Source of the DNA: an uncultured Methanosarcinales archaeon | GTDB lineage: Archaea > Nanobdellota > Nanobdellia > Woesearchaeales > CAXGTL01 | DNA: 64,000 bases | Direction: 5' to 3' | Assembly: GCA_964535955.1 (NCBI GenBank) | Contig: CAZHVK010000001.1 | Span: 115,542-179,541 of the forward strand | Shown here: piece after piece, positions 11,083 to 50,006 of the stretch | Position numbering within the stretch: the first letter of the stretch is position 1 | How the letters are laid out: every line of letters starts with the position of its first letter | Translations under genes and position numbers: made by a program | Notes under the pieces: generated by a model | Seen by the model: only the letters and a program-made list of their open reading frames with translations | Database searches by the model: none | Told to the model about the DNA's origin: nothing

Positions 11083-12729
11083 TCAGAACTTTAATAAACT
11101 TTTAATTCTATTTTTAACATCTTTTAGTATTTCATAATCTTCTTTATTCAAGCATCTAAATATAAGAATAAAGCTTACATAAAGAAATAAAAATAGTATA
11201 AATAATGCAGAAAGATTAAAAACAGTTCTTTGATCAATCATAGTAAATAAATAATAAACAATTGTGAATGTAACAGCACCTACAAATATAGTTTTAATCT
11301 GTTTTATTTGGAAAGGACTTATCTTTGTAAAATAATAAGATTGAATGCCACACAAGAATCCATAAATTAACAGACTAACAGATGTGGAAATTGCTCCTCC
11401 AACAATACCTCCAAATGAATCTGTTCTTGGAATCAACCAGTAGCTAAGGATTATGTTTACTACTGCAGCAATTGCTAAATTGATCATTAAATGTTTTGAT
11501 TTTTTAAGAACTTTTAATGTTTGTGCAGAGATATTAAAAATATGATAAATGAAATAACTTGCTGCTAAGATTATTAAAGGAATATAACCGGGAATATATT
11601 CAGAACCAAATAATATTTTTATAATTTGTCTTGCAAAAATTATTATTATTAAAACTAGTGGTAAATTAAAAACAAACACCCAATTAATACTTGTTTTGAA
11701 TGTTTTTTTAAATGAAGCAAAATCTTTTTTAGCTAATAATTCAGTCATCACAGGCAAAAATAGCACGACAATTCCTCCAGGAATTATAGAGATTAATGTT
11801 GCTGTAGGTAATGCTGCATTATATATTCCTACTTCTGCCTCTGTTCTAAAATAACCCATAATAAGTGTAGCTGTCCAAACCATTACTTGAGTTATTAATG
11901 TGCACATCATTAAAGGAAAAGAATATGATAAAATAGGATTCATTCTAAAATCTTTTATCTTGAAATGAGTTTGTGTTTTATTTGATTTTATTGATTTTAA
12001 ATCTTTTTTAGATTTCTTAGAGATAGGATCTAATAATTTGTTTTTAATAATATAAAATGAAATGATTGCTGTTGAGGCAATTGCAACTACATATCCAATT
12101 GCTGCACCAATTACTCCTAAACCAAAAAATAATAATATTAATGTAAACAAGACTTTAACAAAATTCTCATTGATGTTTTTTGTAAAAGAAAATGACTTTG
12201 CGTCTTTGATAGCTCTGATTGCTGCTAAAAATACATTACTTATAACTAGTAAGGGTATTGTGAGAGCAAGAATCTTTAAAATAGGTATTAGATTTGAGTT
12301 TTTGAAAAAATAAATAGAGATTTCATTAGAAAAAATGTATACTATACCTGCCATTATTACTGAAAAAATTACAGATATTCTTAGTGAATTGATAATAAGT
12401 GCTCTGATCTTGTTAATTTGTTTTTTGCCAAGATAATAAGAAACATATCTCAAAACACCTTCATCTAAGCCTAACAAAGAAATAAAACTTACAATTCCTG
12501 TTACTGCTAATGCTAAAGAAATAAGACCATATTCTTCTGTGCCTATCCTTGCAACAATCATACGATAAATATAACTTAATAATTTAGAAATAACCATTCC
12601 AATAAATACATAAAAAGCTCCTTTAGCAATGGTTTTAGATGCATGATTATGTTGATCTTTGCTTTGCTTGTCTTTGCTTTGCTTGTCTTTGCTTTGCTTG
12701 TGCTTTTGTTTATACTTTGTATTGGTCAT
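11083..12729 (-). CDS. Wzx-like oligosaccharide flippase (MOP/polysaccharide biosynthesis protein family) with an N-terminal (KQSKD)3 repeat
   Basis: About 12-14 TM helices of Wzx/MATE-like architecture. The start is conserved as AKGAFYVFIGMVISKLLSYIYRMIVARIGTEEYG. Confidence 0.7.
   Translation of the reverse strand: MTNTKYKQKHKQSKDKQSKDKQSKDQHNHASKTIAKGAFYVFIGMVISKLLSYIYRMIVARIGTEEYGLISLALAVTGIVSFISLLGLDEGVLRYVSYYLGKKQINKIRALIINSLRISVIFSVIMAGIVYIFSNEISIYFFKNSNLIPILKILALTIPLLVISNVFLAAIRAIKDAKSFSFTKNINENFVKVLFTLILLFFGLGVIGAAIGYVVAIASTAIISFYIIKNKLLDPISKKSKKDLKSIKSNKTQTHFKIKDFRMNPILSYSFPLMMCTLITQVMVWTATLIMGYFRTEAEVGIYNAALPTATLISIIPGGIVVLFLPVMTELLAKKDFASFKKTFKTSINWVFVFNLPLVLIIIIFARQIIKILFGSEYIPGYIPLIILAASYFIYHIFNISAQTLKVLKKSKHLMINLAIAAVVNIILSYWLIPRTDSFGGIVGGAISTSVSLLIYGFLCGIQSYYFTKISPFQIKQIKTIFVGAVTFTIVYYLFTMIDQRTVFNLSALFILFLFLYVSFILIFRCLNKEDYEILKDVKNRIKSLLKF
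12654..12705. repeat. 15-nt tandem repeat x3 (gctttgcttgtcttt) encoding (KQSKD)3 at the flippase N-terminus
   Basis: The repeat is directly visible in the sequence. Confidence 0.9.
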
Positions 12730-17492: not shown

Positions 17493-18743
17493 TTACAATA
17501 TGTTTTTTATAAAATATAAATACTTTGGTTCTTTTAATAGTATTTTTATCAGCAGAGTTGTTATGTAATCTCTGTCATATTTACTTAATAGTTTCTTTAT
17601 CTTAGGCTGATTTGTTAGTTTGAATAAATAATCATAATCCTTGTTTGTGAATTTGTCAAGTGTTTTTCTTATGATAAGGTGAAGTAATAAATCTTTGTTT
17701 AATAGCTGATTGCATAATTTTAGATAGGATTTATTATTTTTGATTGATTTTGCTAAAGCTTGTGCTGCTAATAATGACTGAATTATACCACCTGCTGTGG
17801 TTGCTTTGATTTGGGTTGCTGCATCTCCTATAAGATATAATTGTAGATTTCTCTTTTTCCTGTAAATCAGGGCTCTTGGATTGTATATAGGTATAAGCCC
17901 TGCTTGGTAGTCTATGATTATACTATTTTGTTTGTTTTGTTTGTTTTGTTTGTTTTGTTTGTTGTTTATTAATCTTTTTTTGTTATTGATTTTGATATTG
18001 TGTGTTTTCTCAATTTTATTGATAAAATCATTGAAGACTTTTTTTTGATTCTTATAACAAGCAATTCCAACTCTTGCAATTGTGTCTGATTCTGGGACAA
18101 ACCATGCAAAACCTTTTTTAAGAGGGTAAAATTCAAGAGTATTCTTATTTTTTATATTTATTTTTATCCTAACTTGGATACCTATGAGGAATTTAGGATA
18201 TAATTTATGATTAATTGCCTTTGAAACTATACTTTGTGGACCGTCTGCTCCAATGAGATGATTGGTTGTGCATAATAGATTTTTGTTCTTGGTCTTTAGA
18301 ACAATTGTTTTATGATGTGTATTTTGTAGACGATGAAACCCTTGAAAATTGTGATTTAAGTAAATTTTTACTCCCAAATCTTGTGCTTTTTTAGATAAAA
18401 ATTGGTCGAATTTAGCACGATCCAGGACCAAATTTGGTTGATTTAGTTTAATTGTGATATATTGAGTGTTTGGTGAAACAATCTTTGCAAATTTAATCTT
18501 ATTTTTAATTAAGTTTTTTGGTAATTTTATAATTTTATTAATAGAATTCGTCACCAAACCAGTACATTTGACAGGAATTCCAATATTATTGTGTTCTTCA
18601 AATACTGAAATCCTGTGATTTGTATTTTTTGCTAGTAAATATGCAGTATACAATCCAGCAGGTCCTGCTCCAATAATTGCTACATCTGTTTTTAATGTTT
18701 TAGATATTCTTGTTCTTGGTTTTTTTAATGGTTTTTTATACAT
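17493..18743 (-). CDS. Geranylgeranyl reductase family FAD-dependent oxidoreductase (archaeal lipid saturation) with an (NKQ)n insertion
   Basis: FAD-binding motif VAIIGAGPAGLYTAYLLAK and the GGR-family fold. The NKQNKQNKQNKQN insert is encoded by a 9-nt microsatellite. Confidence 0.8.
   Translation of the reverse strand: MYKKPLKKPRTRISKTLKTDVAIIGAGPAGLYTAYLLAKNTNHRISVFEEHNNIGIPVKCTGLVTNSINKIIKLPKNLIKNKIKFAKIVSPNTQYITIKLNQPNLVLDRAKFDQFLSKKAQDLGVKIYLNHNFQGFHRLQNTHHKTIVLKTKNKNLLCTTNHLIGADGPQSIVSKAINHKLYPKFLIGIQVRIKINIKNKNTLEFYPLKKGFAWFVPESDTIARVGIACYKNQKKVFNDFINKIEKTHNIKINNKKRLINNKQNKQNKQNKQNSIIIDYQAGLIPIYNPRALIYRKKRNLQLYLIGDAATQIKATTAGGIIQSLLAAQALAKSIKNNKSYLKLCNQLLNKDLLLHLIIRKTLDKFTNKDYDYLFKLTNQPKIKKLLSKYDRDYITTLLIKILLKEPKYLYFIKNIL
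17928..17966. repeat. 9-nt tandem repeat (tttgttttg) x about 4 encoding (NKQ)n within the GGR gene
   Basis: The repeat is directly visible in the sequence. Confidence 0.85.
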
Positions 18744-18772: not shown

Positions 18773-21712
18773 TTATTTCTCTTTATTTGTTATTTTACTT
18801 CTTTTTTTATCTATTATAATCAGAATAATCAGAATAGTAATTCCAAGTCCTATAAAATATAAATATTCTTTAATGTAATCAATAAAATAGATTATAGTAT
18901 AGATAATTGCTGCAAGTAATATTATCCAAATAAGAATTTTAAACAAATTTGTTTTTTTTGTTGATTTGTTTGATTTCTCAGGCTTTTTTTCTTTTTTTGA
19001 CTTTTTTATTTTTTTTGTTTTTAATTCTTTTCTTGCTTTTTTTTTCATGTTCTTTTGTTTTACTTTTTCTTTTGATTTTTTTTCTTTTTCTTTACTTTTT
19101 TTGCCTTTTTGTGTCTTTGAAGTTTTTCTTTGTTTGTTTGTAATAAAATTAATAATTAAGATTAATACTACCAAAATAACAAAACCAAGAATAACATAAT
19201 AAAGATAAGATGAGTAAGAAGAACTATATTTAAAAAAGAATTGCTTAATAGAGGTTGCATTTAATTTAGGCTCAGTTGTTCTTATTAGAGATTGTCCAAA
19301 CTCTGTTTCTTTTGTTGTCTTTGTTTCTTCGCCTGTGTCTAATTCTTCTCCTGTGTCTAATTCTTCTCCTGTGTCTAATTCTTCACCTGTGTCTAATTCT
19401 TCACCTGTGTCTGGTTCAAAGACATCCTTGGTAACATCGTCTGTAACATTGTCGGCAATACCTAATCCTTTCTGAGTATAAGAAGAAAAATTTAACACTT
19501 TATTTATATTAACTATTACATGGGAACTAGAAAAATACAAACCAATTAGAATTAGTAATATTATTACAAAAAAAAGAATTATCTTAAGATATTTCCAAAA
19601 TTTTCCTGTTTTTTTAGGTTTTTCTAATTCTAATCTATATCCTTGCCCAAGATGTTTGTCATTAAAACTTAATTCTAGGTCAGACATAAAACCTTTTGGT
19701 TTTTGTTTGGGTTTCTGTTTTGATTTCTGTTTTAATTTCTGTTTGGGTTTTTGTTTAAGTTTTGATTTAGGTTTTAATTTCTGTTTGGGTTTTTGTTTAA
19801 ACATTAATTTCAGTTTAGCTATTATTAGGCTGATTATGTTTTTTCCTTTCCTTTTTTGTGTTTTTCCTGCTTTGTGTTGTAATTTTTTCTTGTCTTCTTT
19901 TGATTTTGTTTTTCCTTTTATTTTTTCCTTTTCTTTACCTTTTCCTTTTATTTTTGGTTTTTGTTTTTCTTCTCTAATAAAATATGTTGTTGAACCTATA
20001 ATGATCAGGATTATAATGACAATAATTATTATTAAAACCAAGATGTCTGCTCTACTTAATCCTGCTTCTTTTTCCATAATTAATTTAGTTGAATAAGTGA
20101 AATTGTTTGTGTTTGCTAAAAATAAAGCTTCAAACTTGTCTTGAGAAGTATTTGTAGGAAGGATGACATTTATGTTAACAGTTGAATTTTCATTAGGATT
20201 TATTGTTACTTCATCTTGTTCTAATGAAAACATATCACTTGGTTCAATTGCAAGATCATATGTTGATTTTAAAACACCTGTGTTCTGAATATCTAATGCT
20301 AAAGATGTTGTATTTTCATTTATTATGAACTTATCTTTAAGAGGTGTAATATCATAACATTGATCATCTGAAATTGTTTTGATAGTTATGCTTTTCTTTA
20401 TTTCTAAGTCTGGATTTGATTTTGATTTTATTATGACTTTATTAGAAGTATAATAATTTTCTTCAGGAGTTGTTATTATGTTAAATTCTGCTTCTGAATT
20501 CTTTGGAACAGAAATAGATTCTTTTTCAAGTTTAGATGAATTGTCACCTTCTAATTCTAATTCAAAATCAGTATCTAAATCAGCATTATTGATTATTTTT
20601 ATTGGTATACTTGTTGGTACCTTGTTGCAAGCTTTTAGACCTTCCGGAACAATAATATTAAAATCATAACATTCATTTATGGTTAGATTTGTATTAAATG
20701 TTTTTTTAAAAGAAGCTTTATCTAATTTAATTGTGAATGTTGTAGGATATACTCCTTTTGAATCTTTACTTGGGTGAGAAGTAAAATTAAGTTCATATCC
20801 TGTTTTAGGGCCTAAAGTGATTTTTTTAAATGGTATATCTATAAAATTTGGACCTTCAACAGAAAGAATAAATGATGCTTCACTATCTTCATTATTTTTT
20901 ATTTGTATGAGTTCTGTGTATTTTTGTTGTTCACAAAAACTGTATTCTTCATCAATGTCTGCTGAAAAATCAAACTTAGGGATTACATTTGTCTGAAAAT
21001 AAGTGGCCGCTTTTAGTTTTGTCTTATCTGTTTTTATAATTAATTTAACAGTTTCAGTTCCAAAATAATCACAAGATGGTTTAAAATAGACTATTAATGA
21101 TTCCTCTTTACCTGGTTGTAAGGTGAAAGATTTCTTGTTTATTGAAAAATATTCCTTTATCCACCACCGAGGTTTTATTTGAATATCAAAATTTTCTGAA
21201 AAAGAACCAATATTTTTGATTTTAAACTCATAAATCAAAGACCCGCATGAAGAGATTGTTTGATTAGAGTTTATTGGTGTTACTTTTATATTACTGCATC
21301 TGTTGATATTGACAGTTTTAGTCAACCTTTTTTTATAATTATTCTCATCTGAAACAATAGTATCTAATATAAAGGATCCTTGCTTGTCACAAGGGGCCTG
21401 TATAACATTATATATTATTTGCTCTTTTCCTGACCCTAACAAAATGGTCTTAGGATTAATATTTGAGAATTCAGCAGCTTTATTCTGATTAGAAATTTTA
21501 TAAGTATGGCTTAAATATCCTTTGTTTTTTATTTTTAGTTCTTCTACTATATCTGAACATTGGCAGAGGTTGATTTCCTTGTCCTTTGAGGTTAATAAGA
21601 AGTCTTCTGATGCTAAAATTAGTGAAGAAAATGAAATTAATGTAATAAAAGATAGGATTATAATTAAATAAAAACTAGAAATTCTATTTAGTCTACCAAC
21701 CCCATAACTCAT
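18773..21712 (-). CDS. Large (979 aa) cell-envelope protein: signal/TM anchor, multiple beta-rich extracellular domains, internal TM helices separated by very K-rich loops, and a (DTGEEL)5 acidic repeat
   Basis: N-terminal hydrophobic segment. Repeated beta-sandwich-like segments (CARDB/DUF11-like patterns such as NIKVTPINSNQTISSCGSLIYEFKIKN). Several TM helices are flanked by KxK-rich stretches. Confidence 0.5.
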   Translation of the reverse strand: MSYGVGRLNRISSFYLIIILSFITLISFSSLILASEDFLLTSKDKEINLCQCSDIVEELKIKNKGYLSHTYKISNQNKAAEFSNINPKTILLGSGKEQIIYNVIQAPCDKQGSFILDTIVSDENNYKKRLTKTVNINRCSNIKVTPINSNQTISSCGSLIYEFKIKNIGSFSENFDIQIKPRWWIKEYFSINKKSFTLQPGKEESLIVYFKPSCDYFGTETVKLIIKTDKTKLKAATYFQTNVIPKFDFSADIDEEYSFCEQQKYTELIQIKNNEDSEASFILSVEGPNFIDIPFKKITLGPKTGYELNFTSHPSKDSKGVYPTTFTIKLDKASFKKTFNTNLTINECYDFNIIVPEGLKACNKVPTSIPIKIINNADLDTDFELELEGDNSSKLEKESISVPKNSEAEFNIITTPEENYYTSNKVIIKSKSNPDLEIKKSITIKTISDDQCYDITPLKDKFIINENTTSLALDIQNTGVLKSTYDLAIEPSDMFSLEQDEVTINPNENSTVNINVILPTNTSQDKFEALFLANTNNFTYSTKLIMEKEAGLSRADILVLIIIIVIIILIIIGSTTYFIREEKQKPKIKGKGKEKEKIKGKTKSKEDKKKLQHKAGKTQKRKGKNIISLIIAKLKLMFKQKPKQKLKPKSKLKQKPKQKLKQKSKQKPKQKPKGFMSDLELSFNDKHLGQGYRLELEKPKKTGKFWKYLKIILFFVIILLILIGLYFSSSHVIVNINKVLNFSSYTQKGLGIADNVTDDVTKDVFEPDTGEELDTGEELDTGEELDTGEELDTGEETKTTKETEFGQSLIRTTEPKLNATSIKQFFFKYSSSYSSYLYYVILGFVILVVLILIINFITNKQRKTSKTQKGKKSKEKEKKSKEKVKQKNMKKKARKELKTKKIKKSKKEKKPEKSNKSTKKTNLFKILIWIILLAAIIYTIIYFIDYIKEYLYFIGLGITILIILIIIDKKRSKITNKEK
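19330..19420. repeat. 24-nt tandem repeat x5 (cctgtgtctaattcttc[a/t]...) encoding (DTGEEL)5
   Basis: The repeat is directly visible in the sequence. Confidence 0.9.
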
Positions 21713-23495: not shown

Positions 23496-25397
23496 TTAAA
23501 TAACTTTTATTCTTCTTATCTTAACTCTTTGATCAGTTCCTGTTGAGATAATTATCCTCATTTCATATGTTCCTGGCATTGTTTTTTCAGGTATTTTAAG
23601 GACAACTTCTTTTGTTAACATGTCGTCATCATCTATTTCAAATGGACCCATTTCTTCTACAAACCCTAATTTTGGTGCTATAATGTGAAGAACTGCTTGA
23701 TCAATGTCTTTTGCTCTTTCTTTTGCAAAATTAACTGAAACATCTACTTTGTCTCCAGGTTTGAAATAAACTTGATTATCATTAGTCTTTATTCTACCTA
23801 CAAATAAATCTCTTTTAGCTGAATCAACAGCAGTGATTGTTACTGTATCTGAAGAAGTTAATTCTCCATCTGAAACTGTTAATTTAAAGACATATTCTCC
23901 TGTTCTTTCTGGTGTAAAAGATGCACGAGCTTGGTCAACATTGTTCATAGTCACTGTTTCTGGACCATCTTCAAATGTCCATTCATAAGTTAACATTGGA
24001 TCAAAAGGATTTGGATCGTATGAACCTGTACCATCTAATTTAAACAATACATCAACTACAGCTTCTTTATCATTTCCTGCATCTGCTACAGGTCTTGTGT
24101 TAATTGCATCCTCACCTGTAACTACAACATTAAACTCAGCCACACCTGCTAAACCTTGGTCATCAAAAGCAACTATTTGCAAAAGATGTGTGCCTGCTTT
24201 TGTGTAATAATGAGATTTATCAAAGTTGTATGATGCTGAGTTAGGAGTAAATTCTTCTGATTCACCATCTCCATAATAAATTATAACTGCCTCAATTAAT
24301 GTATCATCTGTAACTTGACCATTAAATGAAACTTCTAAAGGAGCATCTCCTTCTAAAGGACCTGCTGTTGCAGTAACTTCTGGTCTTTGATTATCTGGAT
24401 CAATTGAAACTAGAAAGTTTGTTACATAAACAACTGCGCCTTCTTGATCAGGTGCATATTCAAATCTTTCTGTTTTACCATTATTAATAACTTCACATTC
24501 CCAATGTTTTACTGCTGCATTATAATTACAAGTAGTATCAAATTGATTATTATGTTCATTTTGTCCTGATAAAGTACATGTACTTTTTTCTATATCACAG
24601 ACATTTAAATTTCCATCTAAAAAGAAATAATCTTTGTCTTTGTGATAACCTTCTGCTGAATGTTCAACTGCATAAGCCCTATTAGCATTAACTACAAAGT
24701 TTGCATTAGGTGTTCCTGTCTTAACAATACCACCTAAATCAACTGTTACTGGTTTTATGAATGCTTCTGTATTATAATCTTTTGCAGATGTTTTAACAGT
24801 GAATTGTGTTATAGCAGGAACTGATGTTTGTGCATCATCTGTTGGTTCTTGTGTATCTTCTTCTGTTTGGTCATCTGTTTGTTCGTCTGTTTGTTCGTCT
24901 GTTTCTTCTCCTGTTAAAGGTACTAAGAAATTTGTTACATAAACAACTGCGCCTTGGTCAGGTGCATATTCAAATCTTTCTGTTTTATCATTATTAACAA
25001 CTTTGCATTCCCAATGTTTTACTGCTGCATTGTAATTGCAAGAAGTAACATAATTATGATTATGATCATCATTACCTGTTAATGAACAAGTTGCTTGTTG
25101 TATATCACAAGTATCAAGATCACTGTCTAAAAAGAAATAATCTTTGTCTGATTTATAATTATCTGCTGAGTGTGTGACTGCATAAGCTCTGTCAGCACTA
25201 ACAGCGAAATTTGCATTAGGATTTCCTACTGCTTTAATTCCACCTAAATCAATATCACACGGTTTAATGAATTGTTCTGTGTTATAGTCTTTTGCAGATG
25301 TTTTAACAGTAAAAGTTGAGTATGCTGCTAATGCACCTGAAGCAATGACTATTGAAATCACAAGAAACATAAAAATCATATATTTTAGTTTTGCCAT
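23496..25397 (-). CDS. Secreted protein with two tandem copies of a novel domain of about 140 aa, separated by an acidic T/E/D/Q linker, followed by two PKD-like domains
   Basis: Signal peptide present. An internal duplication runs FTVKTSAKDYNTE.FIKP...NYNAAVKHWEC.V.NN.KTERFEYAPDQ...VVYVTNFLV. PKD motifs include WTFEDG...GEYVFKLTVSDG. The start at 25397 has a GAGAGGT SD upstream. Confidence 0.55.
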   Translation of the reverse strand: MAKLKYMIFMFLVISIVIASGALAAYSTFTVKTSAKDYNTEQFIKPCDIDLGGIKAVGNPNANFAVSADRAYAVTHSADNYKSDKDYFFLDSDLDTCDIQQATCSLTGNDDHNHNYVTSCNYNAAVKHWECKVVNNDKTERFEYAPDQGAVVYVTNFLVPLTGEETDEQTDEQTDDQTEEDTQEPTDDAQTSVPAITQFTVKTSAKDYNTEAFIKPVTVDLGGIVKTGTPNANFVVNANRAYAVEHSAEGYHKDKDYFFLDGNLNVCDIEKSTCTLSGQNEHNNQFDTTCNYNAAVKHWECEVINNGKTERFEYAPDQEGAVVYVTNFLVSIDPDNQRPEVTATAGPLEGDAPLEVSFNGQVTDDTLIEAVIIYYGDGESEEFTPNSASYNFDKSHYYTKAGTHLLQIVAFDDQGLAGVAEFNVVVTGEDAINTRPVADAGNDKEAVVDVLFKLDGTGSYDPNPFDPMLTYEWTFEDGPETVTMNNVDQARASFTPERTGEYVFKLTVSDGELTSSDTVTITAVDSAKRDLFVGRIKTNDNQVYFKPGDKVDVSVNFAKERAKDIDQAVLHIIAPKLGFVEEMGPFEIDDDDMLTKEVVLKIPEKTMPGTYEMRIIISTGTDQRVKIRRIKVI

Positions 25398-25566
25398 TTT
25401 TATATTACCTCTCATAGTTTTTCATTATATTAATTTATGATTGTAAATTGTGTTGATTTTTGTTGTTTTATTTAAATTTTATGTTATTGCTTTTATTCTT
25501 TGTTGTTCTGTTGTTGCTATATTATAATAATACTATTATATTAAATAAATCAAAAAAATAAAAAAA

Positions 25567-30956: not shown

Positions 30957-31206
30957 TATAATTATTTATTATTTATTCAGTCTTTAGACTAAACCTAAAT
31001 ATTGTCTAACACCTATTTTGTAGAATACTAATATTACAATATCATATGGGAATATGTACTAGTTTATAAATATTTCTATATTCACTACTGGCCAATAAAG
31101 ATAAAAATCTTGAAATATAGGCAAATTTATAAATATAACATACACATACTATATAGTATAGGTATTAATTAGATGTTTGGAATAAATATATGTAGGGGTT
31201 GAGTTA

Positions 31207-31343
31207 AAGGAGGAAGACAAAAATGATGCCAGGAATGAATATAAACAAACTTTTACAAAGTTTGATCAAAGGTAGTGAGGCATTACGCTTTGCTTCAGCC
31301 ACACAAGGAGGAAGACAAAAATGATGCCAGGAATGAATATAAA
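31207..31343. repeat. Direct duplication of a 39-nt translation-initiation segment (AAGGAGGAAGACAAAAATGATGCCAGGAATGAATATAAA) at 31207-31245 and 31305-31343
   Basis: The two 39-nt copies are exactly identical and lie 98 nt apart. Confidence 0.9.
31223..31324 (+). CDS. Putative 33-codon upstream ORF (MMPGMNINKLLQSLIKGSEALRFASATQGGRQK). It shares its first 7 codons with NAC, and its TGA stop overlaps the NAC ATG (ATGA)
   Basis: Created by the duplicated SD-plus-start segment. It has the same strong SD (AAGGAGG) as the downstream gene. Confidence 0.3.
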   Translation: MMPGMNINKLLQSLIKGSEALRFASATQGGRQK

Positions 31344-31665
31344 TCCACGTATGATGAAGCAAGCTATGAAAAAGATGGGTATGAAGCAAGAAGAAGTTGA
31401 TGCTAAAGAAGTTATCATAAAATTAGAAGATAAAGAATTAGTATTTCATAATCCAAGTGTGAGTAAAGTGAATGTTATGGGGCAGGAATCGTACCAAGTT
31501 TCAGGTGATTTTGAGGAACGTGGTTTAGATACAAAAGCTGAAATTAATGAAGATGATATAAAGGTTGTTATAGAACAATGTGGTTGTAGTGAAGAAGATG
31601 CTGAGAATGCAATTAAAGAAGCTGAAGGTGATCTTGCTAAAGCAATTATGAGCCTAAAAGGATGA
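31321..31665 (+). CDS. nac: Nascent polypeptide-associated complex protein (archaeal NAC alpha)
   Basis: Typical archaeal NAC N-terminus MMPGMNINPRMMKQAMKKMGM, the NAC domain, and a C-terminal UBA-like tail (EEDAENAIKEAEGDLAKAIMSL). Confidence 0.85.
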   Translation: MMPGMNINPRMMKQAMKKMGMKQEEVDAKEVIIKLEDKELVFHNPSVSKVNVMGQESYQVSGDFEERGLDTKAEINEDDIKVVIEQCGCSEEDAENAIKEAEGDLAKAIMSLKG

Positions 31666-33927: not shown

Positions 33928-34416
33928 GTGAAATATATGACAACATGCAATATGTGTGGTTTGAATGCTGAAATGCTATATGTTATTTCCTTAGAAGGAA
34001 GTGATTTGAAAGTATGTAAAGGTTGTAGTTCTTATGGAAAAATTAAAACAATTATTGAACCTGTTGTTAAAGAAAAAAAGAAAAAAAAACTGGAAAAAGA
34101 AAGATTTGAAAAACCAGAAATAGAACTAATTCAAATGGTTGTTTCTAATTATAGTGTACTTGTTAAAAATGCTAGAGAAAGAAAAGGGTTGAAACAAAAG
34201 GAAATTGCAAAACTAATAAATGAAAAAGAATCTGTTATTCATAAGATAGAATCTGGAAATCTAAAACCTTCAATTAAGCTTGCAGAGAAATTAGAAAGAT
34301 TTTTTAGAATTAAACTAATTGAACAGCATGAAGAGATTCATGCTTCAAAAACTAAAAAAGCTGAAGCAGGAGAAGGATTGACAATAGGAGATATGATCAA
34401 GATTAAGAAAAAGTAA
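33928..34416 (+). CDS. mbf1: Archaeal multiprotein-bridging factor 1 (aMBF1): N-terminal zinc ribbon plus C-terminal XRE-type HTH
   Basis: Zinc ribbon CNMCG...CKGCSSYGK. HTH ARERKGLKQKEIAKLINEKESVIHKIESGN. Confidence 0.8.
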   Translation: MKYMTTCNMCGLNAEMLYVISLEGSDLKVCKGCSSYGKIKTIIEPVVKEKKKKKLEKERFEKPEIELIQMVVSNYSVLVKNARERKGLKQKEIAKLINEKESVIHKIESGNLKPSIKLAEKLERFFRIKLIEQHEEIHASKTKKAEAGEGLTIGDMIKIKKK

Positions 34417-34479: not shown

Positions 34480-35205
34480 TTATTGTTTTTCTTCTCCACA
34501 TTCTTCATTATCTATTTGTAGTTTGTTTTGTTCTATTAATCTATTGACTAAACCTTGAATTTGATCATAAGATTGAACATCTTCTAGTTTTATTTCCTCA
34601 TCCACCAAGATTGTTGGTGTTTCTTCTATTTCAAATTGTTTTATAAAAATATTAATCATAGAAACATTCATATCTATTGGCAAAGGTATTAACATAACTT
34701 GGTGCCCATAATCTTCTTTGATTTCTCTTAAAATGTCTGATTGTGTGAATTGTTTTTGTTTTTCTTCTATGTCAGGCTCATTCCTAAAAAAATAAACAAG
34801 ATTAATATAATCTGGATTGCACTTTTCTTTTAAGACCATGTTGTTAAGCCAAAACTGCGTCTTTAGTAAAGCATGTCTTTTTTTTTCAAATGTCATTTCA
34901 CCTGTTAAAGCATTTGAATCCTCATAAGAGTCTATTTTTTTACCTAGTTCATATATTTCATCTGAAAATATTATGTTTTCTTTTATTGCGAGACCACACT
35001 CTTCTTGTTCTATGTTTTGATAATACATGCTTTGGATTCTTGCATCCTGCCATTGAAGTTCTATATCCTGGTATCTTTCTTCAATAGAAGAAATTCTTTG
35101 CTCCTCTAAAATATAACCCAATAAAATACCTAACATAAAAATTACTAAAGTGTATATGGCAGCTTTGATGAATATTGGTTTATAATTTTTTGTCATTGTT
35201 CTCAC
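34480..35205 (-). CDS. Hypothetical membrane-anchored extracytoplasmic protein, the first gene of the second GT cluster
   Basis: Single N-terminal TM (AAIYTLVIFMLGILLGYIL). No recognisable domain. Confidence 0.4.
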   Translation of the reverse strand: MRTMTKNYKPIFIKAAIYTLVIFMLGILLGYILEEQRISSIEERYQDIELQWQDARIQSMYYQNIEQEECGLAIKENIIFSDEIYELGKKIDSYEDSNALTGEMTFEKKRHALLKTQFWLNNMVLKEKCNPDYINLVYFFRNEPDIEEKQKQFTQSDILREIKEDYGHQVMLIPLPIDMNVSMINIFIKQFEIEETPTILVDEEIKLEDVQSYDQIQGLVNRLIEQNKLQIDNEECGEEKQ

Positions 35206-36443
35206 CAGGTTATGTCTCTAATTATTATTTTGTAAATTGAATGAATCAATAAAATTGGGAAAAGTGCAACATATATAAAAAGATATAGAAAAAAGCTCAT
35301 GCTTATTACAGGAATCTTTGTATGAACCTTCATTGTCTTTAGTGCGTAATAAAGTGTTATAATAACAATTATTAAAAATACAATTGCAAAAAAAGTAAAA
35401 CTATTAGGCAAGATTACAAACTCACCAAAATAAAAAGGATTATTCTGTGTGATTATTGAATTTTTTGTTAAAAAATAAATTGATACAAATTTCATAGAAA
35501 ACATATAAACTATTACTGAAAGGCCCATTAGACTTAAGATTAATGACCCTAAAAAAAAAGGAGCTACAAACATTCCCATCATACCATATATTCTTCTAAA
35601 AATTAAATCTCTATGTTTATATGCTGTTTGCAAACCACCAATATCCCACCTAATTCTTTGGTTCCACCATTTTTTTATTGTCTTTGGAACAATTGTAAAA
35701 GATCTTGCACTTAAACACATCTTGATATCATAACCTTTTTTTAACAAACGCCATGCTATCTCAATATCTTCAGTGATATTGCTTGAATCAAAACCTCCAG
35801 AAGCCAGAAAAGTTGTTTTTCTGTACATACTAAGTCCACCAGGAGTAACATAGACGCTACTAATATATTGTAATAATTTTCTTCCCCACGCAATTAAAGT
35901 ATATTCTATTGCTTGAAGCTTTTCTAAAATGTTTTTTGGACTTTTAACTAATACTGATGCTGTAACAGCTGCCACAGTTGGGTCTTCAAAATAAGGTATC
36001 ATCTTTAAAAAAGCATTTTTATCTACATAAGAATCTGCATCAATTACTGCTAAAATATTACCTTTTGCAATCTTTGCTGTTTGATTAAGAGAATCTGCTT
36101 TACCACTATTCTTCTTTGAAATTATTTTTAGATTTGTTATTTTTTTTTGATCTTTAAATTTTTGTATTCTTTTTAAAGTGTCGTCTGTTGAACCATCATC
36201 AATGGCAATTACTTCTAATTTATTTTTAGGGTAATTACATGAAAGAATGTTTTTGATTGTCCCTACTATTGTATCTTGTTCATTATAGGCAGTTGTAAGT
36301 GTTGTGATTTTTAGAAATGTTTTTTTGGCAACAGGATCGTCGAATAATTGATCTTTTCTTTGGAAAAATAAAATTAAAAATATAAAAGAAAGATATAATG
36401 ATACTAATATGAAAAATAAATATATAATTGTAATTATTTCCAT
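35202..36443 (-). CDS. Processive family-2 glycosyltransferase (cellulose/chitin synthase-like) with C-terminal TM helices
   Basis: DXD motifs (AIDDGSTDDT, VIDADS) and the Q-x-x-R-W motif (WNQRIRWDIGG). N-terminal TM plus four or more C-terminal TM helices. Confidence 0.75.
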   Translation of the reverse strand: MEIITIIYLFFILVSLYLSFIFLILFFQRKDQLFDDPVAKKTFLKITTLTTAYNEQDTIVGTIKNILSCNYPKNKLEVIAIDDGSTDDTLKRIQKFKDQKKITNLKIISKKNSGKADSLNQTAKIAKGNILAVIDADSYVDKNAFLKMIPYFEDPTVAAVTASVLVKSPKNILEKLQAIEYTLIAWGRKLLQYISSVYVTPGGLSMYRKTTFLASGGFDSSNITEDIEIAWRLLKKGYDIKMCLSARSFTIVPKTIKKWWNQRIRWDIGGLQTAYKHRDLIFRRIYGMMGMFVAPFFLGSLILSLMGLSVIVYMFSMKFVSIYFLTKNSIITQNNPFYFGEFVILPNSFTFFAIVFLIIVIITLYYALKTMKVHTKIPVISMSFFLYLFIYVALFPILLIHSIYKIIIRDITW

Positions 36444-41909: not shown

Positions 41910-42575
41910 ATGTCTTATACTAAAATAATATCTTCAGGAAGTATTGTGGTAGATGATTTGTTAGATGGTGGTCTTGATAAAGATAAGATTACTTGTGTGT
42001 ATGGGGAAGCTGCTGCTGGCAAGACAACATTGGCAATATTAGCTGCTGTTGAGTGTGCTGCTTTAGGAGGCAAAGTTTTGTTTATTGATTCTGAAAATGG
42101 GTTTAGTACTGAAAGATTTAAACAGCTAAGCTGTGATAATTTGGAACTATTAAAGAATGTGTTTGTTGTTAAGATTAAATCTTTTTATGATCAATTACAG
42201 AAATTAAAGTTATTGGGTGAAAGTTTTTCTAAGTTTAGTTTGATAATTGTTGATACTATTGGTAATTTTTATCGTAAAGAGGTTGTTAAGGATATATTTG
42301 CTAATAAACAATTGGTTCATCAGTTCAATATATTAAAACAGATCGCTGATGAAAAAATTCCAGTGTTAATCACTAACCAAATCTATACTGACCCCAAAGA
42401 TAAAAGTGTGCAAGTTGTTGGTGGTAAAATTGTTAAGAATAATGTTGATTGTTTGATTCAATTGGTTAAGTTGAGTTCTGGTAATCGTTGTTGTGTGTTA
42501 AGAAAGCATCATGTGATTAAAGAAAAAAAAGAAAAAGGATTTAAGATTGTTGAAAAGGGGTTTATTCCATTATAA
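41910..42575 (+). CDS. radB: RadB-type recombinase paralogue (RecA/RadA superfamily, KaiC-like core)
   Basis: Walker A is GEAAAGKTTLAI and Walker B is LIIVDTI. The 221-aa size is typical of archaeal RadB. Confidence 0.7.
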   Translation: MSYTKIISSGSIVVDDLLDGGLDKDKITCVYGEAAAGKTTLAILAAVECAALGGKVLFIDSENGFSTERFKQLSCDNLELLKNVFVVKIKSFYDQLQKLKLLGESFSKFSLIIVDTIGNFYRKEVVKDIFANKQLVHQFNILKQIADEKIPVLITNQIYTDPKDKSVQVVGGKIVKNNVDCLIQLVKLSSGNRCCVLRKHHVIKEKKEKGFKIVEKGFIPL

Positions 42576-42577
42576 AT

Positions 42578-43135
42578 TTATGCTTCTGTGACTGCTTCAG
42601 TTAAGTCATCTTCTTTTTGTACAATGAATTCCAAATCATCCATATGTTCAAGAAGTTTTATAGAGGCTTCTGTTTTTGATGCATCTTCTACTCCTTCATA
42701 TGCTTTTTGTGCTACTGCTTTTATCCTAACACAATCATAAGGATAATCTCTTTCATCATAAAAATCTAGAACAGTGTAAATAAAAATTGGAGAACCAGCA
42801 ATAGTTTTTTGAAAAGTTCTTCCTTTTGCTCCGCCTTCAAGCATATAATCTTTTAATGTTTTTGGTCCTTGTTTTAGTTTATCTTTATCAAGTATTAGTT
42901 TTGCTTTAAGTATGCCTAAAGCAAGTTTGTCAGGATCTTTTATTCCTTCAACTACTGCAACTAGTTTTGAATGTTCACCGCCTTCACCACCACCATAATT
43001 ACTATAATGCCAAGTGTAAACATAATGACCATCTACTTCTTCATGAACCACTGACATACGATTACCATCTTCTAAAGTAATTCCATAACCATTTTGTCTT
43101 TTTTCTATTTTTCTAGCTTCTGTTTCTTGCTCCAT
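42578..43135 (-). CDS. Conserved hypothetical protein
   Basis: I chose the ATG at 43135 because a GGAGGT SD lies 7 nt upstream; the track start at 43150 would place the SD inside the CDS. Confidence 0.4.
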   Translation of the reverse strand: MEQETEARKIEKRQNGYGITLEDGNRMSVVHEEVDGHYVYTWHYSNYGGGEGGEHSKLVAVVEGIKDPDKLALGILKAKLILDKDKLKQGPKTLKDYMLEGGAKGRTFQKTIAGSPIFIYTVLDFYDERDYPYDCVRIKAVAQKAYEGVEDASKTEASIKLLEHMDDLEFIVQKEDDLTEAVTEA

Positions 43136-43203
43136 TTTAATAACCTCCAAAATAATCTAAGAACCTCTTTTTAATAAAAGAAAATAAATAAAATATATAA
43201 ACC

Positions 43204-43809
43204 TTACTCTTCAGTAAACTCTTCCAATCCTGGAAACTTGTCTCCTTCTTTAATCAAACCTTTTCTTGTCATGTATTCTTTTGCAATTATGTAAAATATT
43301 AATCCTAATGACTTTTTACCTTTGTTATTGCATGGAATGACTAAATCAACATTATTAGATTGGTTATTTGTGTCACATAATGCAATTATTGATATGCTCA
43401 TTCTAACTGCATCTTCGACAGCATTTCTGTCTGGCCAAGGATCTGTTGAGAATAAGATCTTTGGTTCTGTAAATCCATCTAATAAAGGGTTTGTTAAGAT
43501 TCCAGGAGGATACCTGCCTGGATAAGCTTTTGTGCCTATTAAATCTGCAAACTTGTTAATAGCTTTCCAACCATTCTCTCTTCTTGAAATAAGCATTATT
43601 TCATTTGGTTCAAATTGTGTTAGAAAATTTATGGCTAATCTAATTCTTTCATCTATTTTTTGAAGATTTAAAACTGATAAACCATCTGGTCTTGTTTTGT
43701 ATATGAATTTTTCCATATATTTTGTTTTGAATTTTGTTCCAATATGAATACCTGCTTTTAGGTATTGATCAGATGGTACTAAAAATTGTCTTTGTTGTTG
43801 AGCTGCCAT
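43204..43809 (-). CDS. rps2: 30S ribosomal protein S2 (uS2)
   Basis: The archaeal uS2 pattern runs throughout (QFLVPSDQYLKAGIHIGTKFKT..., GRYPPGILTN). Confidence 0.9.
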   Translation of the reverse strand: MAAQQQRQFLVPSDQYLKAGIHIGTKFKTKYMEKFIYKTRPDGLSVLNLQKIDERIRLAINFLTQFEPNEIMLISRRENGWKAINKFADLIGTKAYPGRYPPGILTNPLLDGFTEPKILFSTDPWPDRNAVEDAVRMSISIIALCDTNNQSNNVDLVIPCNNKGKKSLGLIFYIIAKEYMTRKGLIKEGDKFPGLEEFTEE

Positions 43810-43836
43810 GTTAATTTCACCTTTTATATTTTATTA

Positions 43837-44000
43837 CATGTGTATGGTTCGTTCAAACTTTCCATGTGTCATATCATTGCTTGGAAGGCCTTGTAGTTTT
43901 ACAATTTGTGTGGGTTTTCACTTGTCAGAAATGGGACATTTCTGATCATGCTCATGAATCTACGATTCATGACAGGCCTTAACAGGCACCATACACATGT
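43837..44000. repeat. Intergenic inverted-repeat-closed structured element, copy B
   Basis: A 13-bp perfect terminal inverted repeat, ACATGTGTATGGT ... ACCATACACATGT. Internal motifs are TCGTTCAAACTTTCCATGTG and GGCCTTAACAGGC. Three internal perfect hairpins are present. Both sides carry the flank TTTTATTAC. Confidence 0.6.
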
Positions 44001-44133
44001 TTTATTACAGTAGAATCATATTCATACTGTATTTATTATCAGCCAATACAGTGTTTGTCTTAAGTCCACGTATGTGCTTTACTTAAGATAGGCTAATGTA
44101 TGTTGGTAGAGGGGTTTGGTTTATAAATGTAAC

Positions 44134-45204
44134 TCAGAATTCACTCAACTTCTTTTCCTTCTCTTTAAAAGTGATTATCTTTGTTGAGCCACCATATCCT
44201 TGGAGTTTTTCAACCTTTATGAAATGACCTTTTTCTAGTTTATCAATGTGTCTTGTGAAGGATTTATAAGATAAGTTTCCACCTGTGTCTTCATAGATCT
44301 TGTATAGATTGCCTATCTTTGAATTAGGGTTTTCTTTTACAATGTTTAATATGAACTGAGTGTTGTCAACTAAATCTTTTTTATTTTTTACAGAAAATTC
44401 ATCTAATTTTCTTATTGCTTCTTTGACATGTTCTATGGTTATTGTTTTACTACTTTTGTCTTCTGCTGAATTACCAGATTCTCTCATTAGATATAAACCA
44501 GACCTTATGTCCTGCATTAACCATGTTTTTTCTGCAATCAAATTAAATGCACCATCATTCCAAACATTGCTTACAAATGCATATTTTAATCTGTTTTTTA
44601 ATATGCCTACTGTTTCTGATTCATTATATGATTTGAATTCAAGAAATTCACCTGTTAATCTTGATTTTAATCTTGAGTCTAAGTTGTTGAGATATGTCTT
44701 GTAATTGCTTATCAATATTAAACATGATCTGTAGATGTTTTCTAATATAAAGTATAAAAAGTCAAAATCATCTAATTTGTCTATCTCATCAAAACAAAAT
44801 ACTGTACCTACTTTGTTTAGCTTTTCTTTGATAATTTTAAAAAGTTCATGTGTTTTTTTATTTTGTATGAATTTGTAATCTAGTTGGTCGCAAATCTGGC
44901 AGATTATCTTATGTGATGAATTGTGTGTCCAACAATTTATGTAAATTGGTATGATTTCATCTGTTTCCTGTTCTAATTCTTTGAGAACATGTTTTGTTGC
45001 AACTGTTTTGCCAACACCTGGTAACCCATATAACATTAAGTTTCTTGCATTTCTTTTCTGAAATAATGGTTTTATTGAATTTGCTATCTTGTGCTGTTCT
45101 TTTTCTCTGTATGGTAAAAGTTTTGGAATATAGTCATAGTCAAGTGCAACTGTGTTTAAGAAAAGTGATTCATTGTCCTTTAACATGTTGTCGAATAAGC
45201 CCAT
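44134..45204 (-). CDS. orc1/cdc6: Orc1/Cdc6 replication initiator (AAA+ plus C-terminal winged helix)
   Basis: Walker A is LMLYGLPGVGKT, Walker B is FCFDEID, and a wH domain follows. Confidence 0.9.
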   Translation of the reverse strand: MGLFDNMLKDNESLFLNTVALDYDYIPKLLPYREKEQHKIANSIKPLFQKRNARNLMLYGLPGVGKTVATKHVLKELEQETDEIIPIYINCWTHNSSHKIICQICDQLDYKFIQNKKTHELFKIIKEKLNKVGTVFCFDEIDKLDDFDFLYFILENIYRSCLILISNYKTYLNNLDSRLKSRLTGEFLEFKSYNESETVGILKNRLKYAFVSNVWNDGAFNLIAEKTWLMQDIRSGLYLMRESGNSAEDKSSKTITIEHVKEAIRKLDEFSVKNKKDLVDNTQFILNIVKENPNSKIGNLYKIYEDTGGNLSYKSFTRHIDKLEKGHFIKVEKLQGYGGSTKIITFKEKEKKLSEF

Positions 45205-48109: not shown

Positions 48110-50006
48110 TTGCTTGTGAAATTATTTTACCAGGCTCTGAATTCCTTTTTAATCTTATTATTCCTTTTTTATTGACTTTTACTGATAAAACATATTCATC
48201 ATCAACATAAACATCAATGTTTTCATTAGAAAAATCAGAATCTATTTTTAAAACTAAGTTTCTTTTGGCAAATCTTGGTTCAAAATCTATTACTTGTTTA
48301 TTATTCTTATTTTCTTTTCTCTTTTTCCCAGCAAGTTCTTGTATATCTATGCTAAGTCCTAATGATCTTTCTAATTTTTCAATATTTTTTCCATCTTTGC
48401 CAATTATTCTTGCAATATTTTTTTTAGGTATAAAAATCTGGCACCTATTTTGGTTTATTAGTTCAACTTCTGCATCATCTACATATGCTAAGATATATCT
48501 TTTTATTGAATCTTCAACTAACCTTGTCACACCTGATTTTTGTTTTTGTTCTTGAACAGGTATAACCATTGTGTGTTCACCATATGAATATATCTCGAAT
48601 TCTAGTTTGCCTGTTTCAAAATCATTAACAACAACTACTGGTCTTGCAAGATCAGCTTCTGTCATACCTGACGGTACTTTGACAGTCATCTTAAGGTTTA
48701 GTACTTTTTCTACTTGACCATTTTTTATGAACACTACTGTATCAACTACTTGAGGAATAACACCCATTTCTATTCTGCCAATGAATCTTTGAATTGCATC
48801 AATTGGATTTGTTGCATGAACAACACCCACCATGCCAACACCTGCTAATCTCATGTCTGTAAATAATGCAAAATCCTTTGTATTACGCATCTCATCAAAC
48901 ATTGTGTAATCTGGTCTTGAGAGGAGAAGTATGTCATGTATTTCTTCTGATGTTCCTCTTGTTATGGAATATTGAGTTATTGAATCTGAAAGCATTAAGT
49001 CTCTAGGTGCTTCAACTGTTTTTACTATTTTGTCTTTTGATGCAAAATATTCTGCTAATGCTTGTGTAAATGTTGATTTTCCCATTCCTGGTGATCCTGC
49101 TATCAACATACCTTCTGCTTGTTTTGCAATTCTTTGTTTTAATTTTTCACTTAGTTTGTAATCTTTTAATTCTAGTTTTTTTACTGGCCGAACTGCAGTG
49201 ATTTCCCATGAATCTGAAAATGAAGGTTTTGTGATAACTATTCTATAATTAGCTAACTGTACTATTGTTGAACCTTTTCTTGAAATCTCTATAAAACCAT
49301 CTTTTCTCATGCCTGTCTGTTCAACAATTTCATTTGCTATTTCTTTAACTTGGTCTCTATCTAGTACTGTTTTGTCTGCTATTAGAAATTCCCAATTACC
49401 TGGCATACCTTTTTTTGCATATGTTGGCAGGTTTTCCCTTATATGAATACTCATTGTTGTTTTGTCAAAATATTTTTCTAGTATGATTGGTTTTTCTGTT
49501 TTTTCAAATTCTATGAATATTGTGTTAATTCCTTTTGATTGTGCTACTTTGCTCTGGACTTTATCAGCTGTGATCAATGTAGCTTTTTCTTCAAATGCTA
49601 AGCTTCTGATCATTGCATCTATTTCACCTGACTTTGCTCTGCTGATTGCAAACTCCTGCGGTCTTTTGCCTTTATATATTATCTTAAATTTGTGTTTTGT
49701 TGATAGTTTTCTTAGTTTGCTTATCTCTTCAAGCCCTAAATAACCTGTTTCTCTGTTCTGGTTTGCTTGGTGTTCAAGTTCTGCTAGCACTGCTTCGTGA
49801 AATATTAGGTTTGTTATCTTTATCTTTTTGTTTTTTAGTTTTTTTGAGAGAATTCCTTCTATTATGACCGAAGTATCTGGAACTAGTTTGTTTATGATTA
49901 GTTTTTTAGTTTTAGTTTGTTTTGTGTTCTGGTTTTTTTGTTTTGATTTTGTTTTTTTCATTTTATCTTTATTTTCTTGTTTTGATTTTGTTTTTTCATT
50001 TTTCAA
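48075..50006 (-). CDS. PIN-domain P-loop ATPase with a C-terminal KH domain (PilT/PhoH-like archaeal family), K-rich N-terminus
   Basis: PIN domain (LVPDTSVIIEG...E..). Walker A is LIAGSPGMGKST. KH motif is RIIGKDGKNIEKLERSLGLSI. Confidence 0.7.
   Translation of the reverse strand: MKNEKTKSKQENKDKMKKTKSKQKNQNTKQTKTKKLIINKLVPDTSVIIEGILSKKLKNKKIKITNLIFHEAVLAELEHQANQNRETGYLGLEEISKLRKLSTKHKFKIIYKGKRPQEFAISRAKSGEIDAMIRSLAFEEKATLITADKVQSKVAQSKGINTIFIEFEKTEKPIILEKYFDKTTMSIHIRENLPTYAKKGMPGNWEFLIADKTVLDRDQVKEIANEIVEQTGMRKDGFIEISRKGSTIVQLANYRIVITKPSFSDSWEITAVRPVKKLELKDYKLSEKLKQRIAKQAEGMLIAGSPGMGKSTFTQALAEYFASKDKIVKTVEAPRDLMLSDSITQYSITRGTSEEIHDILLLSRPDYTMFDEMRNTKDFALFTDMRLAGVGMVGVVHATNPIDAIQRFIGRIEMGVIPQVVDTVVFIKNGQVEKVLNLKMTVKVPSGMTEADLARPVVVVNDFETGKLEFEIYSYGEHTMVIPVQEQKQKSGVTRLVEDSIKRYILAYVDDAEVELINQNRCQIFIPKKNIARIIGKDGKNIEKLERSLGLSIDIQELAGKKRKENKNNKQVIDFEPRFAKRNLVLKIDSDFSNENIDVYVDDEYVLSVKVNKKGIIRLKRNSEPGKIISQAIKNNDNLELRV

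Follow-up and report, generated by a model that had tools for sequence, protein, structure and literature searches.

How does a housekeeping gene come to carry its translation start twice, and does the additional start serve regulation? The question is raised by a 64,000-nt stretch of archaeal DNA (contig CAZHVK010000001.1, positions 115,542 to 179,541; hereafter the window, meaning the whole stretch). There, the gene for the nascent polypeptide-associated complex (NAC) protein is preceded by an exact copy of its own initiation region, and a short upstream open reading frame (uORF) opens in that copy. The locus probably represents a structural variant of recent origin, restricted to its lineage, in a Woesearchaeota-type (DPANN) archaeal chromosome, in which both the uORF and its probable coupling to NAC are accidental and do not constitute an evolved regulator.

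The duplicated block, AAGGAGGAAGACAAAAATGATGCCAGGAATGAATATAAA, is 39 nt long and combines a Shine–Dalgarno (SD) sequence GGAGG, a 9-nt spacer, an ATGATG start and the first eight codons of NAC. Its two copies, R1 and R2, are 100% identical, have a start-to-start spacing of 98 nt and are parted by 59 nt of other DNA, termed U, so that the full layout R(39)-U(59)-R(39) covers 137 nt (Table 1). R1 stands immediately 3′ of the native 5′ leader. When up to three mismatches are allowed, the block is found at these two sites only in the window, and none of 100 dinucleotide shuffles matched. It is the longest non-low-complexity short-range exact repeat of the window and also of 273 kb of DNA of this lineage, comprising the window and 38 related loci. 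Neither the window nor the 209 kb of related loci contain a further repeat-spacer-repeat of this type. Just one more long exact repeat at short range exists in the related loci, a 32-nt stretch recurring 292 nt apart in locus L033 (5880-6354); it was considered as a comparable insertion and rejected, being a case of gene paralogy: it lies in two adjacent paralogous genes for small pilin-like proteins with hydrophobic N-termini.

The central segment U is no copy of its surroundings. Neither the 59 nt that follow R2 nor those that precede R1 resemble U on either strand, shuffled sequences reaching at least the same score in 981 and 1557 of 2000 trials, respectively. The GC content of U is 41% (53% in its 3′ half) vs 28% for the window. 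Because U copies nothing adjacent, the layout is not a tandem duplication, simple or partial; only 39 of the 98 nt are duplicated, and one slippage event is insufficient since the other 59 nt copy neither flank. The original prediction for this locus had described an exact 39-nt duplicate 98 nt apart, a 33-codon reading frame and an ATGA overlap with NAC, all of which the window sequence confirms. It had also attributed them to a partial tandem duplication, and in this respect it has to be replaced by a repeat-spacer-repeat arrangement around orphan DNA.

A source for U was sought widely. Neither a search at up to three mismatches nor Smith–Waterman alignment detected significant similarity of U to any part of the window, be it R in either orientation or the flanks. 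There was likewise no match in all fetched related loci (blastn-short) or among plasmids and phages. Two sub-patterns of U gave no match in viral contigs, where R gave none either, and two scans of metagenome contigs gave none, a weak negative as that collection evidently lacks even this population. In Rfam, no family reached the gathering threshold for U and the only hit was a noise match (E = 7), so that an origin as a known RNA fragment was rejected. An inverted, fold-back copy of R was rejected too, as local alignments did not score above shuffles; aligned by hand, U and the inverted core of R share ∼14 of 22 positions ungapped or 16 of 23 gapped, which is not significant as DNA; what stands out is confined to the pairing statistic at the RNA level (see below). 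Finally, U might derive from a donor lineage, as the 3′-terminal part of an upstream gene. This was dismissed because the uORF peptide matches only itself when 1.84 billion representative proteins are scanned in full with HMMER.

The downstream gene has the features of archaeal NAC: a NAC domain (PF01849, 4.9e-15) followed by a UBA domain (PF19026, 2.3e-08), a length within the usual range of about 110-120 aa, and an N-terminus of the type M-x-PG-x-N...MKQAMKKMG. It has 371 homologues at E <= 1e-20, and those named by their source are called nascent polypeptide-associated complex protein or subunit alpha. Thirty-eight species-level relatives from Woesearchaeota and Nanoarchaeota (46-84% identity) were compared together with their flanking DNA. 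Their N-termini, M[FIM]PGMN, are consistent with a NAC start at the first ATG. A duplicated SD and start, or a sequence like U, occurs in none of the 38 loci, and neither does the uORF/NAC pair. In the protein database, the next NAC matches below 100% are at ∼84% (partial, 55 residues), and the closest full-length one is at 81%. Relatives without the duplication and a peptide without conservation are the two observations that the original prediction itself had named as speaking against it; both were looked for and found. Its suggestion of active maintenance or of an evolved leader peptide receives no sign of support, as the 38 related loci and a near-identical strain (see below) lack the insert and the peptide has no relatives.

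What the locus looked like before is indicated by L011, L014 and L045, the closest among the relatives whose NAC gene is free-standing. A TATA-box-like element, TTTATAAATATAA, and a downstream ACTACTATA-like motif are kept in all three in the alignment, and their leaders align with the sequence left of R1. By the general features of archaeal promoters, this element would direct transcription of NAC from a start at ∼31150-31160, which would place both repeat copies inside the NAC mRNA. The single start of the relatives and the alignment of their leaders left of R1 define the ancestral layout as promoter-leader-R-NAC; the insert is therefore U plus one R.

Other traits of the region 5′ of NAC vary among the relatives. 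In most of them (L012, L013, L015-L020, L022-L026, L028, L030-L033, L035-L038, L041, L042, L044 and L047), NAC directly follows or overlaps a small membrane-protein gene, seen in the 160 nt upstream of NAC, whose product ends in a hydrophobic segment, contains the motif ...RYFDEYKSKIEFKPGH... and may be Sec61-beta. The window organism, L011, L014 and L045 have lost linkage to that small gene, and NAC has its own TATA promoter. By eye, the segment 31191-31206 (ATATATGTAGGGGTTGAGTTA) resembles the SD region directly before the ATG in L011 (2981-3000, ATATATGGAGGGGATGATTGT). An additional SD segment (AAGGAGGAAGACAAAA) may already have arisen in the window lineage, placed between the start codon and an older SD that is now degenerate.

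Evidence that the insert is recent comes from the population itself. One contig, SCRA20-1_SAMN11854481 scaffold_3959 (L049/L050), reached via a 113-aa NAC variant (P0001), has one R and no U, and joins the left flank straight to this single R and then to the NAC coding sequence. Apart from the missing 98 nt, contig and window agree at every position over 3,342 nt, and over 13,272 nt they differ by 3 SNPs (single-nucleotide polymorphisms). One of these, an A>T change at window position 36217, creates a nonsense codon (L76*) in the gene for a 413-aa family-2 glycosyltransferase (35205-36443, minus strand), which is called as two pieces of 266 aa and 75 aa on L050 (∼12050-12280). Three SNPs, among them a nonsense mutation, identify L049/L050 as a distinct strain and not as a re-assembly of the same reads. 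The uORF/NAC pair is thus absent from a sister strain as well, and other samples of the same SCRA20-1 series carry R-U-R. The perfect identity of the R copies together with the polymorphism in a near-clonal population indicates a young variant, and the recent event that had been proposed from the sequence identity is borne out. The 39-bp direct repeats also make the insert prone to precise loss, as slippage or recombination between them removes exactly 98 nt. As a separate observation, the strain without the NAC insert may differ in surface glycosylation as well.

The same structure recurs in assemblies of two sources. By exact-protein look-ups, NAC was located on 8 contigs. The uORF was called as a gene on 12 contigs, among them all 8 with a full NAC gene. 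These 12 R-U-R contigs stem from at least nine samples, namely the SCRA20-1 and SUTE22-1 series of ENA and the JGI metagenomes 3300009374, 3300009332, 3300008627 and 3300008625; a search of the literature by sample identifier yielded nothing on the environment sampled. The R-U-R region is base-for-base identical in every contig carrying the uORF, so that both R copies and U show zero sequence variation within the population, and the R-U-R haplotypes differ from the window by 0-3 SNPs or one 6-nt indel. The SUTE22-1 haplotype (L057) has a 6-nt deletion at 34222-34227, within an ORF (33937-34413) for a protein with an HTH_3 domain, whose gene calls differ among contigs (152, 154 or 159 aa). Contigs from seven samples start (30673, 31050 and 31204) or end (31522, 31582, 31585 and 31660) at most a few hundred bases from NAC. 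Only one of these breaks, that of L056 at 31204, falls on a repeat boundary, 3 nt before R1; this is the expected effect of a genuine repeat node on the assembly graph. The remaining breaks suggest extra strain heterogeneity or coverage problems.

The uORF takes its SD, its start and its first eight codons from NAC, runs in the same direction and ends in an ATGA stop-start overlap with it. This geometry needs no selection. The overlap is automatic, because an insert of 98 nt equals 2 modulo 3 and NAC starts with ATGATG, so that the uORF, read through U, meets the TGA contained in that start. The frame across U remains open in 21% of U shuffles and in 11% of random 59-mers of genome-like composition, and an open frame so common by chance means that the uORF is in itself no evidence of selection. 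As the sequence shows, the uORF is an automatic by-product of the insertion. Its peptide matches no Pfam family. It is probably translated, as expected from initiation signals that exactly equal those of NAC. SD-led initiation is in use in this genome, a 5-mer SD core occurring at -20 to -4 of 14 of 55 ORFs vs 2.3% of random positions.

Predicted RNA folding links U to the start of NAC. The U+R2 segment folds with -23.9 kcal/mol (z = -3.16), a stability matched by 1 of 200 shuffles. Besides a perfect hairpin at its 5′ end, U is predicted to form a second one, in which its 3′ part pairs with the GG of the SD, with the spacer (GAAG-CAAA) and with UGAUGCC of the start codons in R2. The predicted mean unpaired probability of the NAC initiation region amounts to 0.36 in R-U-R vs 0.70 in the single-R allele, R1 remaining open at 0.66 in R-U-R, and only 2 of 300 U shuffles occlude R2 as strongly. 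As long as R2 has not been transcribed, the predicted partner of U is R1. The statistics of U-R pairing were computed post hoc and are of moderate significance.

The predicted occlusion of the NAC start by U makes translational coupling plausible. With both R copies in the NAC mRNA, the uORF would be translated about as often as NAC formerly was, and U would fold back onto the SD and start of NAC. Ribosomes translating the uORF would melt the hairpin, terminate on AUGA and reinitiate, and NAC synthesis would become partly dependent on the uORF. Termination-reinitiation coupling is documented for gene pairs with ATGA overlaps in Haloferax and E. coli (Huber et al. 2019, PMC6728339), models of translational coupling have been reviewed (Brown & Wade 2025, PMC12548453), and translated small ORFs are documented in archaea (PMC10117724, PMC11456600). 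The original prediction had seen termination-reinitiation coupling or leader-peptide regulation in the stop/start geometry, and an ATGA overlap behind an SD and start identical to those of NAC does fit such coupling; the pairing predicted between the spacer and the NAC SD and start adds support to the mechanistic idea. A partial dependence of NAC translation on ribosomes coming from the uORF is thus plausible in the present allele.

Table 1. Features of the NAC locus in window coordinates; structures and promoter element as predicted.
Feature	Position	Strand	Description
TATA-box-like element of the NAC transcription unit	31126-31138	+	TTTATAAATATAA
R1, upstream block copy	31207-31245	+	SD GGAGG at 31209-31213, 9-nt spacer, ATG at 31223, first 8 NAC codons (MMPGMNIN)
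uORF	31223-31324	+	33 codons, MMPGMNINKLLQSLIKGSEALRFASATQGGRQK; TGA 31322-31324 overlaps NAC ATG 31321-31323 (ATGA)
U, orphan spacer ('filler')	31246-31304	+	59 nt; similar to no neighbouring DNA
5′ hairpin of U	31246-31264	+	perfect 8 bp, CAAACTTT-TAC-AAAGTTTG; read from the sequence, also in the minimum-free-energy structure
Predicted hairpin 2	31279-31328	+	3′ part of U (GGCAUUA...UUUGCUUC..CC) pairs with the NAC initiation region in R2
R2, downstream block copy	31305-31343	+	SD and start joined to the NAC coding sequence
NAC gene	31321-31665	+	114 aa; NAC domain and C-terminal UBA domain

As to the event itself, 98 bp would have been inserted at the 5′ end of NAC, made up of the 59 nt of U and a 39-bp target duplication spanning SD, spacer and the first eight codons. 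A one-off accident of replication or repair, in which a staggered break was filled in or the template was switched and filler DNA was captured, is by exclusion the most likely origin, and a mobile element is less likely. Several element types were examined and discarded. An insertion sequence or a miniature inverted-repeat transposable element is not supported, as none of the 40 registers of the 98-nt insert has terminal inverted repeats, U is single-copy in the window and absent from the collections searched, and a Pfam scan of the 56 window ORFs of at least 80 aa detected no transposase. The same scan found no integrase and no Cas domain, and the 64-kb window has no CRISPR-like array. An integrative element with attachment (att) repeats was rejected, with only 59 nt between the repeats and no integrase in the window, as was a unit of the CRISPR type, U being unmatched in viral contigs, phages and plasmids. 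An integron attC site was dismissed as well: U has the 59 nt of the classical '59-base element', but, as judged by eye, no RYYYAAC...GTTRRRY core sites.

Three other explanations of the structure were weighed. One holds that R-U-R is an assembly artefact, i.e. a spurious graph loop, a chimeric join or a collapsed mixture of strains. The contig breaks near the locus, with L056 starting next to R1, and the fact that the single-R form is given by one assembly speak in its favor. Yet the same R-U-R lies between the same flanks in all 12 contigs, across both ENA and JGI assemblies and several SNP haplotypes; single reads or read pairs can cover the full 137 nt, a graph loop from R through U to R needs real reads over both junctions, and U occurs nowhere else in the window as a source of chimeric reads. 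Misassembly, about which the original prediction had cautioned, is very unlikely and largely excluded. More room, still small, is left for the footprint of an enzyme-driven integration, which we consider improbable. It could have been left by a site-specific integrative element that used a 39-bp att site overlapping the NAC start and was then deleted nearly completely, or it could be an off-target integration of the Cas1 type that duplicated a fixed length of target around a short insert. Exact direct repeats around a foreign-looking, GC-richer insert agree with this, and so does a duplicate that regenerates the gene end, as for elements integrating into gene ends; target duplication upon integration is known for Cas1-Cas2 and for casposases (PMC6698737, PMC5137440). 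The structure here has, however, only 59 nt between its repeats, without integrase or cargo, the window has none of the enzymes and no array, U is unmatched in the viral, plasmid, phage and metagenome collections, and a single such structure exists in the 273 kb of lineage DNA. Casposon duplications measure about 14-15 bp and typical spacers 30-45 nt, against 39 and 59 nt here. Enzyme-driven alternatives share the repeat-insert-repeat anatomy and have no positive support at this locus. Hardly credible, finally, is an intervening sequence spliced from the RNA, such as an archaeal bulge-helix-bulge (BHB) intron, leaving a mature mRNA with a single R. Cutting out any 98-nt register would indeed restore the normal NAC leader, and a genomic allele lacking exactly these 98 nt exists. 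As the splice sites would stand 98 nt apart within identical repeats, the central 4-bp helix of a BHB motif would require a 4-nt palindrome, of which R has only ATAT and TATA, and in a manual check neither the outer nor the inner helix extends beyond 1 bp at either of them; the predicted folds contain no such motif, there is no Rfam match, and flanking direct repeats of 39 nt are not typical of such introns.

The remaining alternative concerns not the origin of the insert but its meaning. The duplicated initiation region, the anti-initiation spacer and the ATGA overlap might form a selected leader-peptide or coupling switch that tunes NAC and is kept frequent by selection: a new translational control element in the course of being born, in which the open ribosome-binding site of NAC, the gene for an essential chaperone associated with the ribosome, has moved to the new uORF, the gene's own start is buried in a hairpin, U can pair with either copy, and an advantageous allele has risen to dominance. 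The unusual structure of U+R2, an occlusion of the NAC SD and start stronger than in more than 99% of the shuffles of U, and the pairing of U with R1 before R2 is made, as in a two-state leader, are all in line with it. So are the presence of R-U-R in 12 of 13 contigs from two sample series and an anatomy like that of ATGA-coupled pairs (PMC6728339) and of attenuation leaders that sequester the SD. Against it, none of the 38 related loci has the arrangement, not even the three closest ones with the same promoter, and there are no NAC relatives between 100% and ∼84% identity to show conservation. The peptide has no relatives, one strain lacks the insert, and the zero variation in U and R leaves purifying selection not demonstrable. 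The open frame with its ATGA overlap arises by chance about one time in five, and the structure statistic is post hoc and only moderately significant. On balance, a selected control element is unlikely.

The preferred reading, an accidental insertion with an accidental uORF, has weak points of its own. No source of U was found, the event that made the 39-bp duplication is reached by exclusion, and a target duplication of this length far exceeds the usual products of transposition. The complementarity of U to R (p about 0.005-0.007, post hoc) is higher than expected of random filler and could mean selection or a templated inverted origin. In principle, the single-R contig may come from an assembler skipping the R-U-R loop; the SNPs being few and star-like, it could also represent either the ancestral state or a secondary deletion. 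The dominance of R-U-R over two sample series (12 contigs vs 1) fits drift or clonal spread, but a selective advantage as well. Finally, uORF translation, coupling and the position of the transcription start are predictions.

Comparison with known systems helps to place the locus. Its closest functional analogues are ATGA-coupled gene pairs and leader ORFs that sequester an SD, and its closest structural analogues are insertions with target duplication. As in ATGA-coupled pairs, the upstream stop overlaps the downstream start, the downstream SD lies inside the end of the upstream ORF, and the structure predicted over the downstream start could be melted by ribosomes from the upstream ORF. Unlike in such pairs, the uORF is a 33-codon orphan from a recent insertion and not a conserved partner gene, it bears the same initiation region as NAC, and the pair is absent from all relatives and polymorphic, with a coupling that is predicted only. 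Leader-peptide attenuation of the ermC/cat type offers another parallel, with a short leader ORF that has its own SD 5′ of the main gene and, here by prediction, a main SD and start held in a hairpin with leader sequence and alternative pairings (U:R1 or U:R2). The differences are a peptide that is not conserved and has no known stalling motif, an arrangement without conservation in the relatives, a uORF that overlaps the main start instead of stopping upstream of the hairpin, and an origin by duplication that is visible and recent. The absence of conservation keeps the locus out of the classes of evolved regulators.

With respect to structure, insertions that duplicate their target (the target-site duplications of transposons, att duplications and the repeat-spacer-repeat units of the Cas1 family; PMC6698737, PMC5137440) share a short insert within exact target repeats and a regenerated gene end. 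They differ from the present case in that 39 bp is too long for ordinary transposition, in that terminal inverted repeats are missing here, and in that a 59-nt single-copy insert without a detectable source stands in 64 kb without an integrase, transposase or cas gene. No inverted termini, a single copy and no enzymes likewise set the locus apart from the mobile-element classes. A tandem duplication by slippage would also give an exact duplicate of SD and start ∼100 nt upstream that can be lost precisely by recombination or slippage; it would not leave 59 of 98 nt that copy neither flank.

The surroundings are those of an ordinary chromosome. The genomes of the NAC relatives are labelled Woesearchaeota, Nanoarchaeota or Nanoarchaeia, and the host is therefore a DPANN archaeon. 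Pfam domains in the window belong to glycosylation enzymes, surface proteins, seryl-tRNA synthetase, ribosomal protein S2, Orc1/Cdc6, a RadB-like protein, a RIO kinase and similar proteins; scans of the window yielded neither a tRNA gene nor an Rfam family above its gathering score. An Orc1/Cdc6 gene (44137-45204, minus strand) lies near a short gene for a RadB-like protein with a Rad51/RecA domain (41910-42572) and the gene for ribosomal protein S2, and a replication origin may be located near 41910-45204. Other repeats in the window are of a different kind. At 24409-25313, within a minus-strand ORF (23499-25415) for a 639-aa PKD-domain protein, likely a surface protein, two units of a repeat with a period of ∼510 nt are ∼80% identical; they reflect a domain duplication within the protein and have no connection with the NAC repeat. 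T/G-rich short-period repeats (9, 12, 15 and 18 nt, plus strand) at 9100-9190, 12656-12700, 17926-17990, 19300-19800 and 49900-50000 fall in large minus-strand ORFs, one of which encodes a 979-aa protein with Ig-like domains, and are low-complexity coding repeats typical of surface proteins.

If this reading of the NAC locus is true, its general importance is modest: it establishes neither a conserved mode of NAC regulation nor a new class of element. It does illustrate how an insertion that duplicates its target can instantly make a uORF, and probably a translational coupling, in front of a conserved housekeeping gene, and it advises caution, in that the geometry of an ATGA-coupled uORF can come about accidentally. 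With the alleles 'before' and 'after' the insertion both present in one natural archaeal population, the locus constitutes a usable natural experiment.

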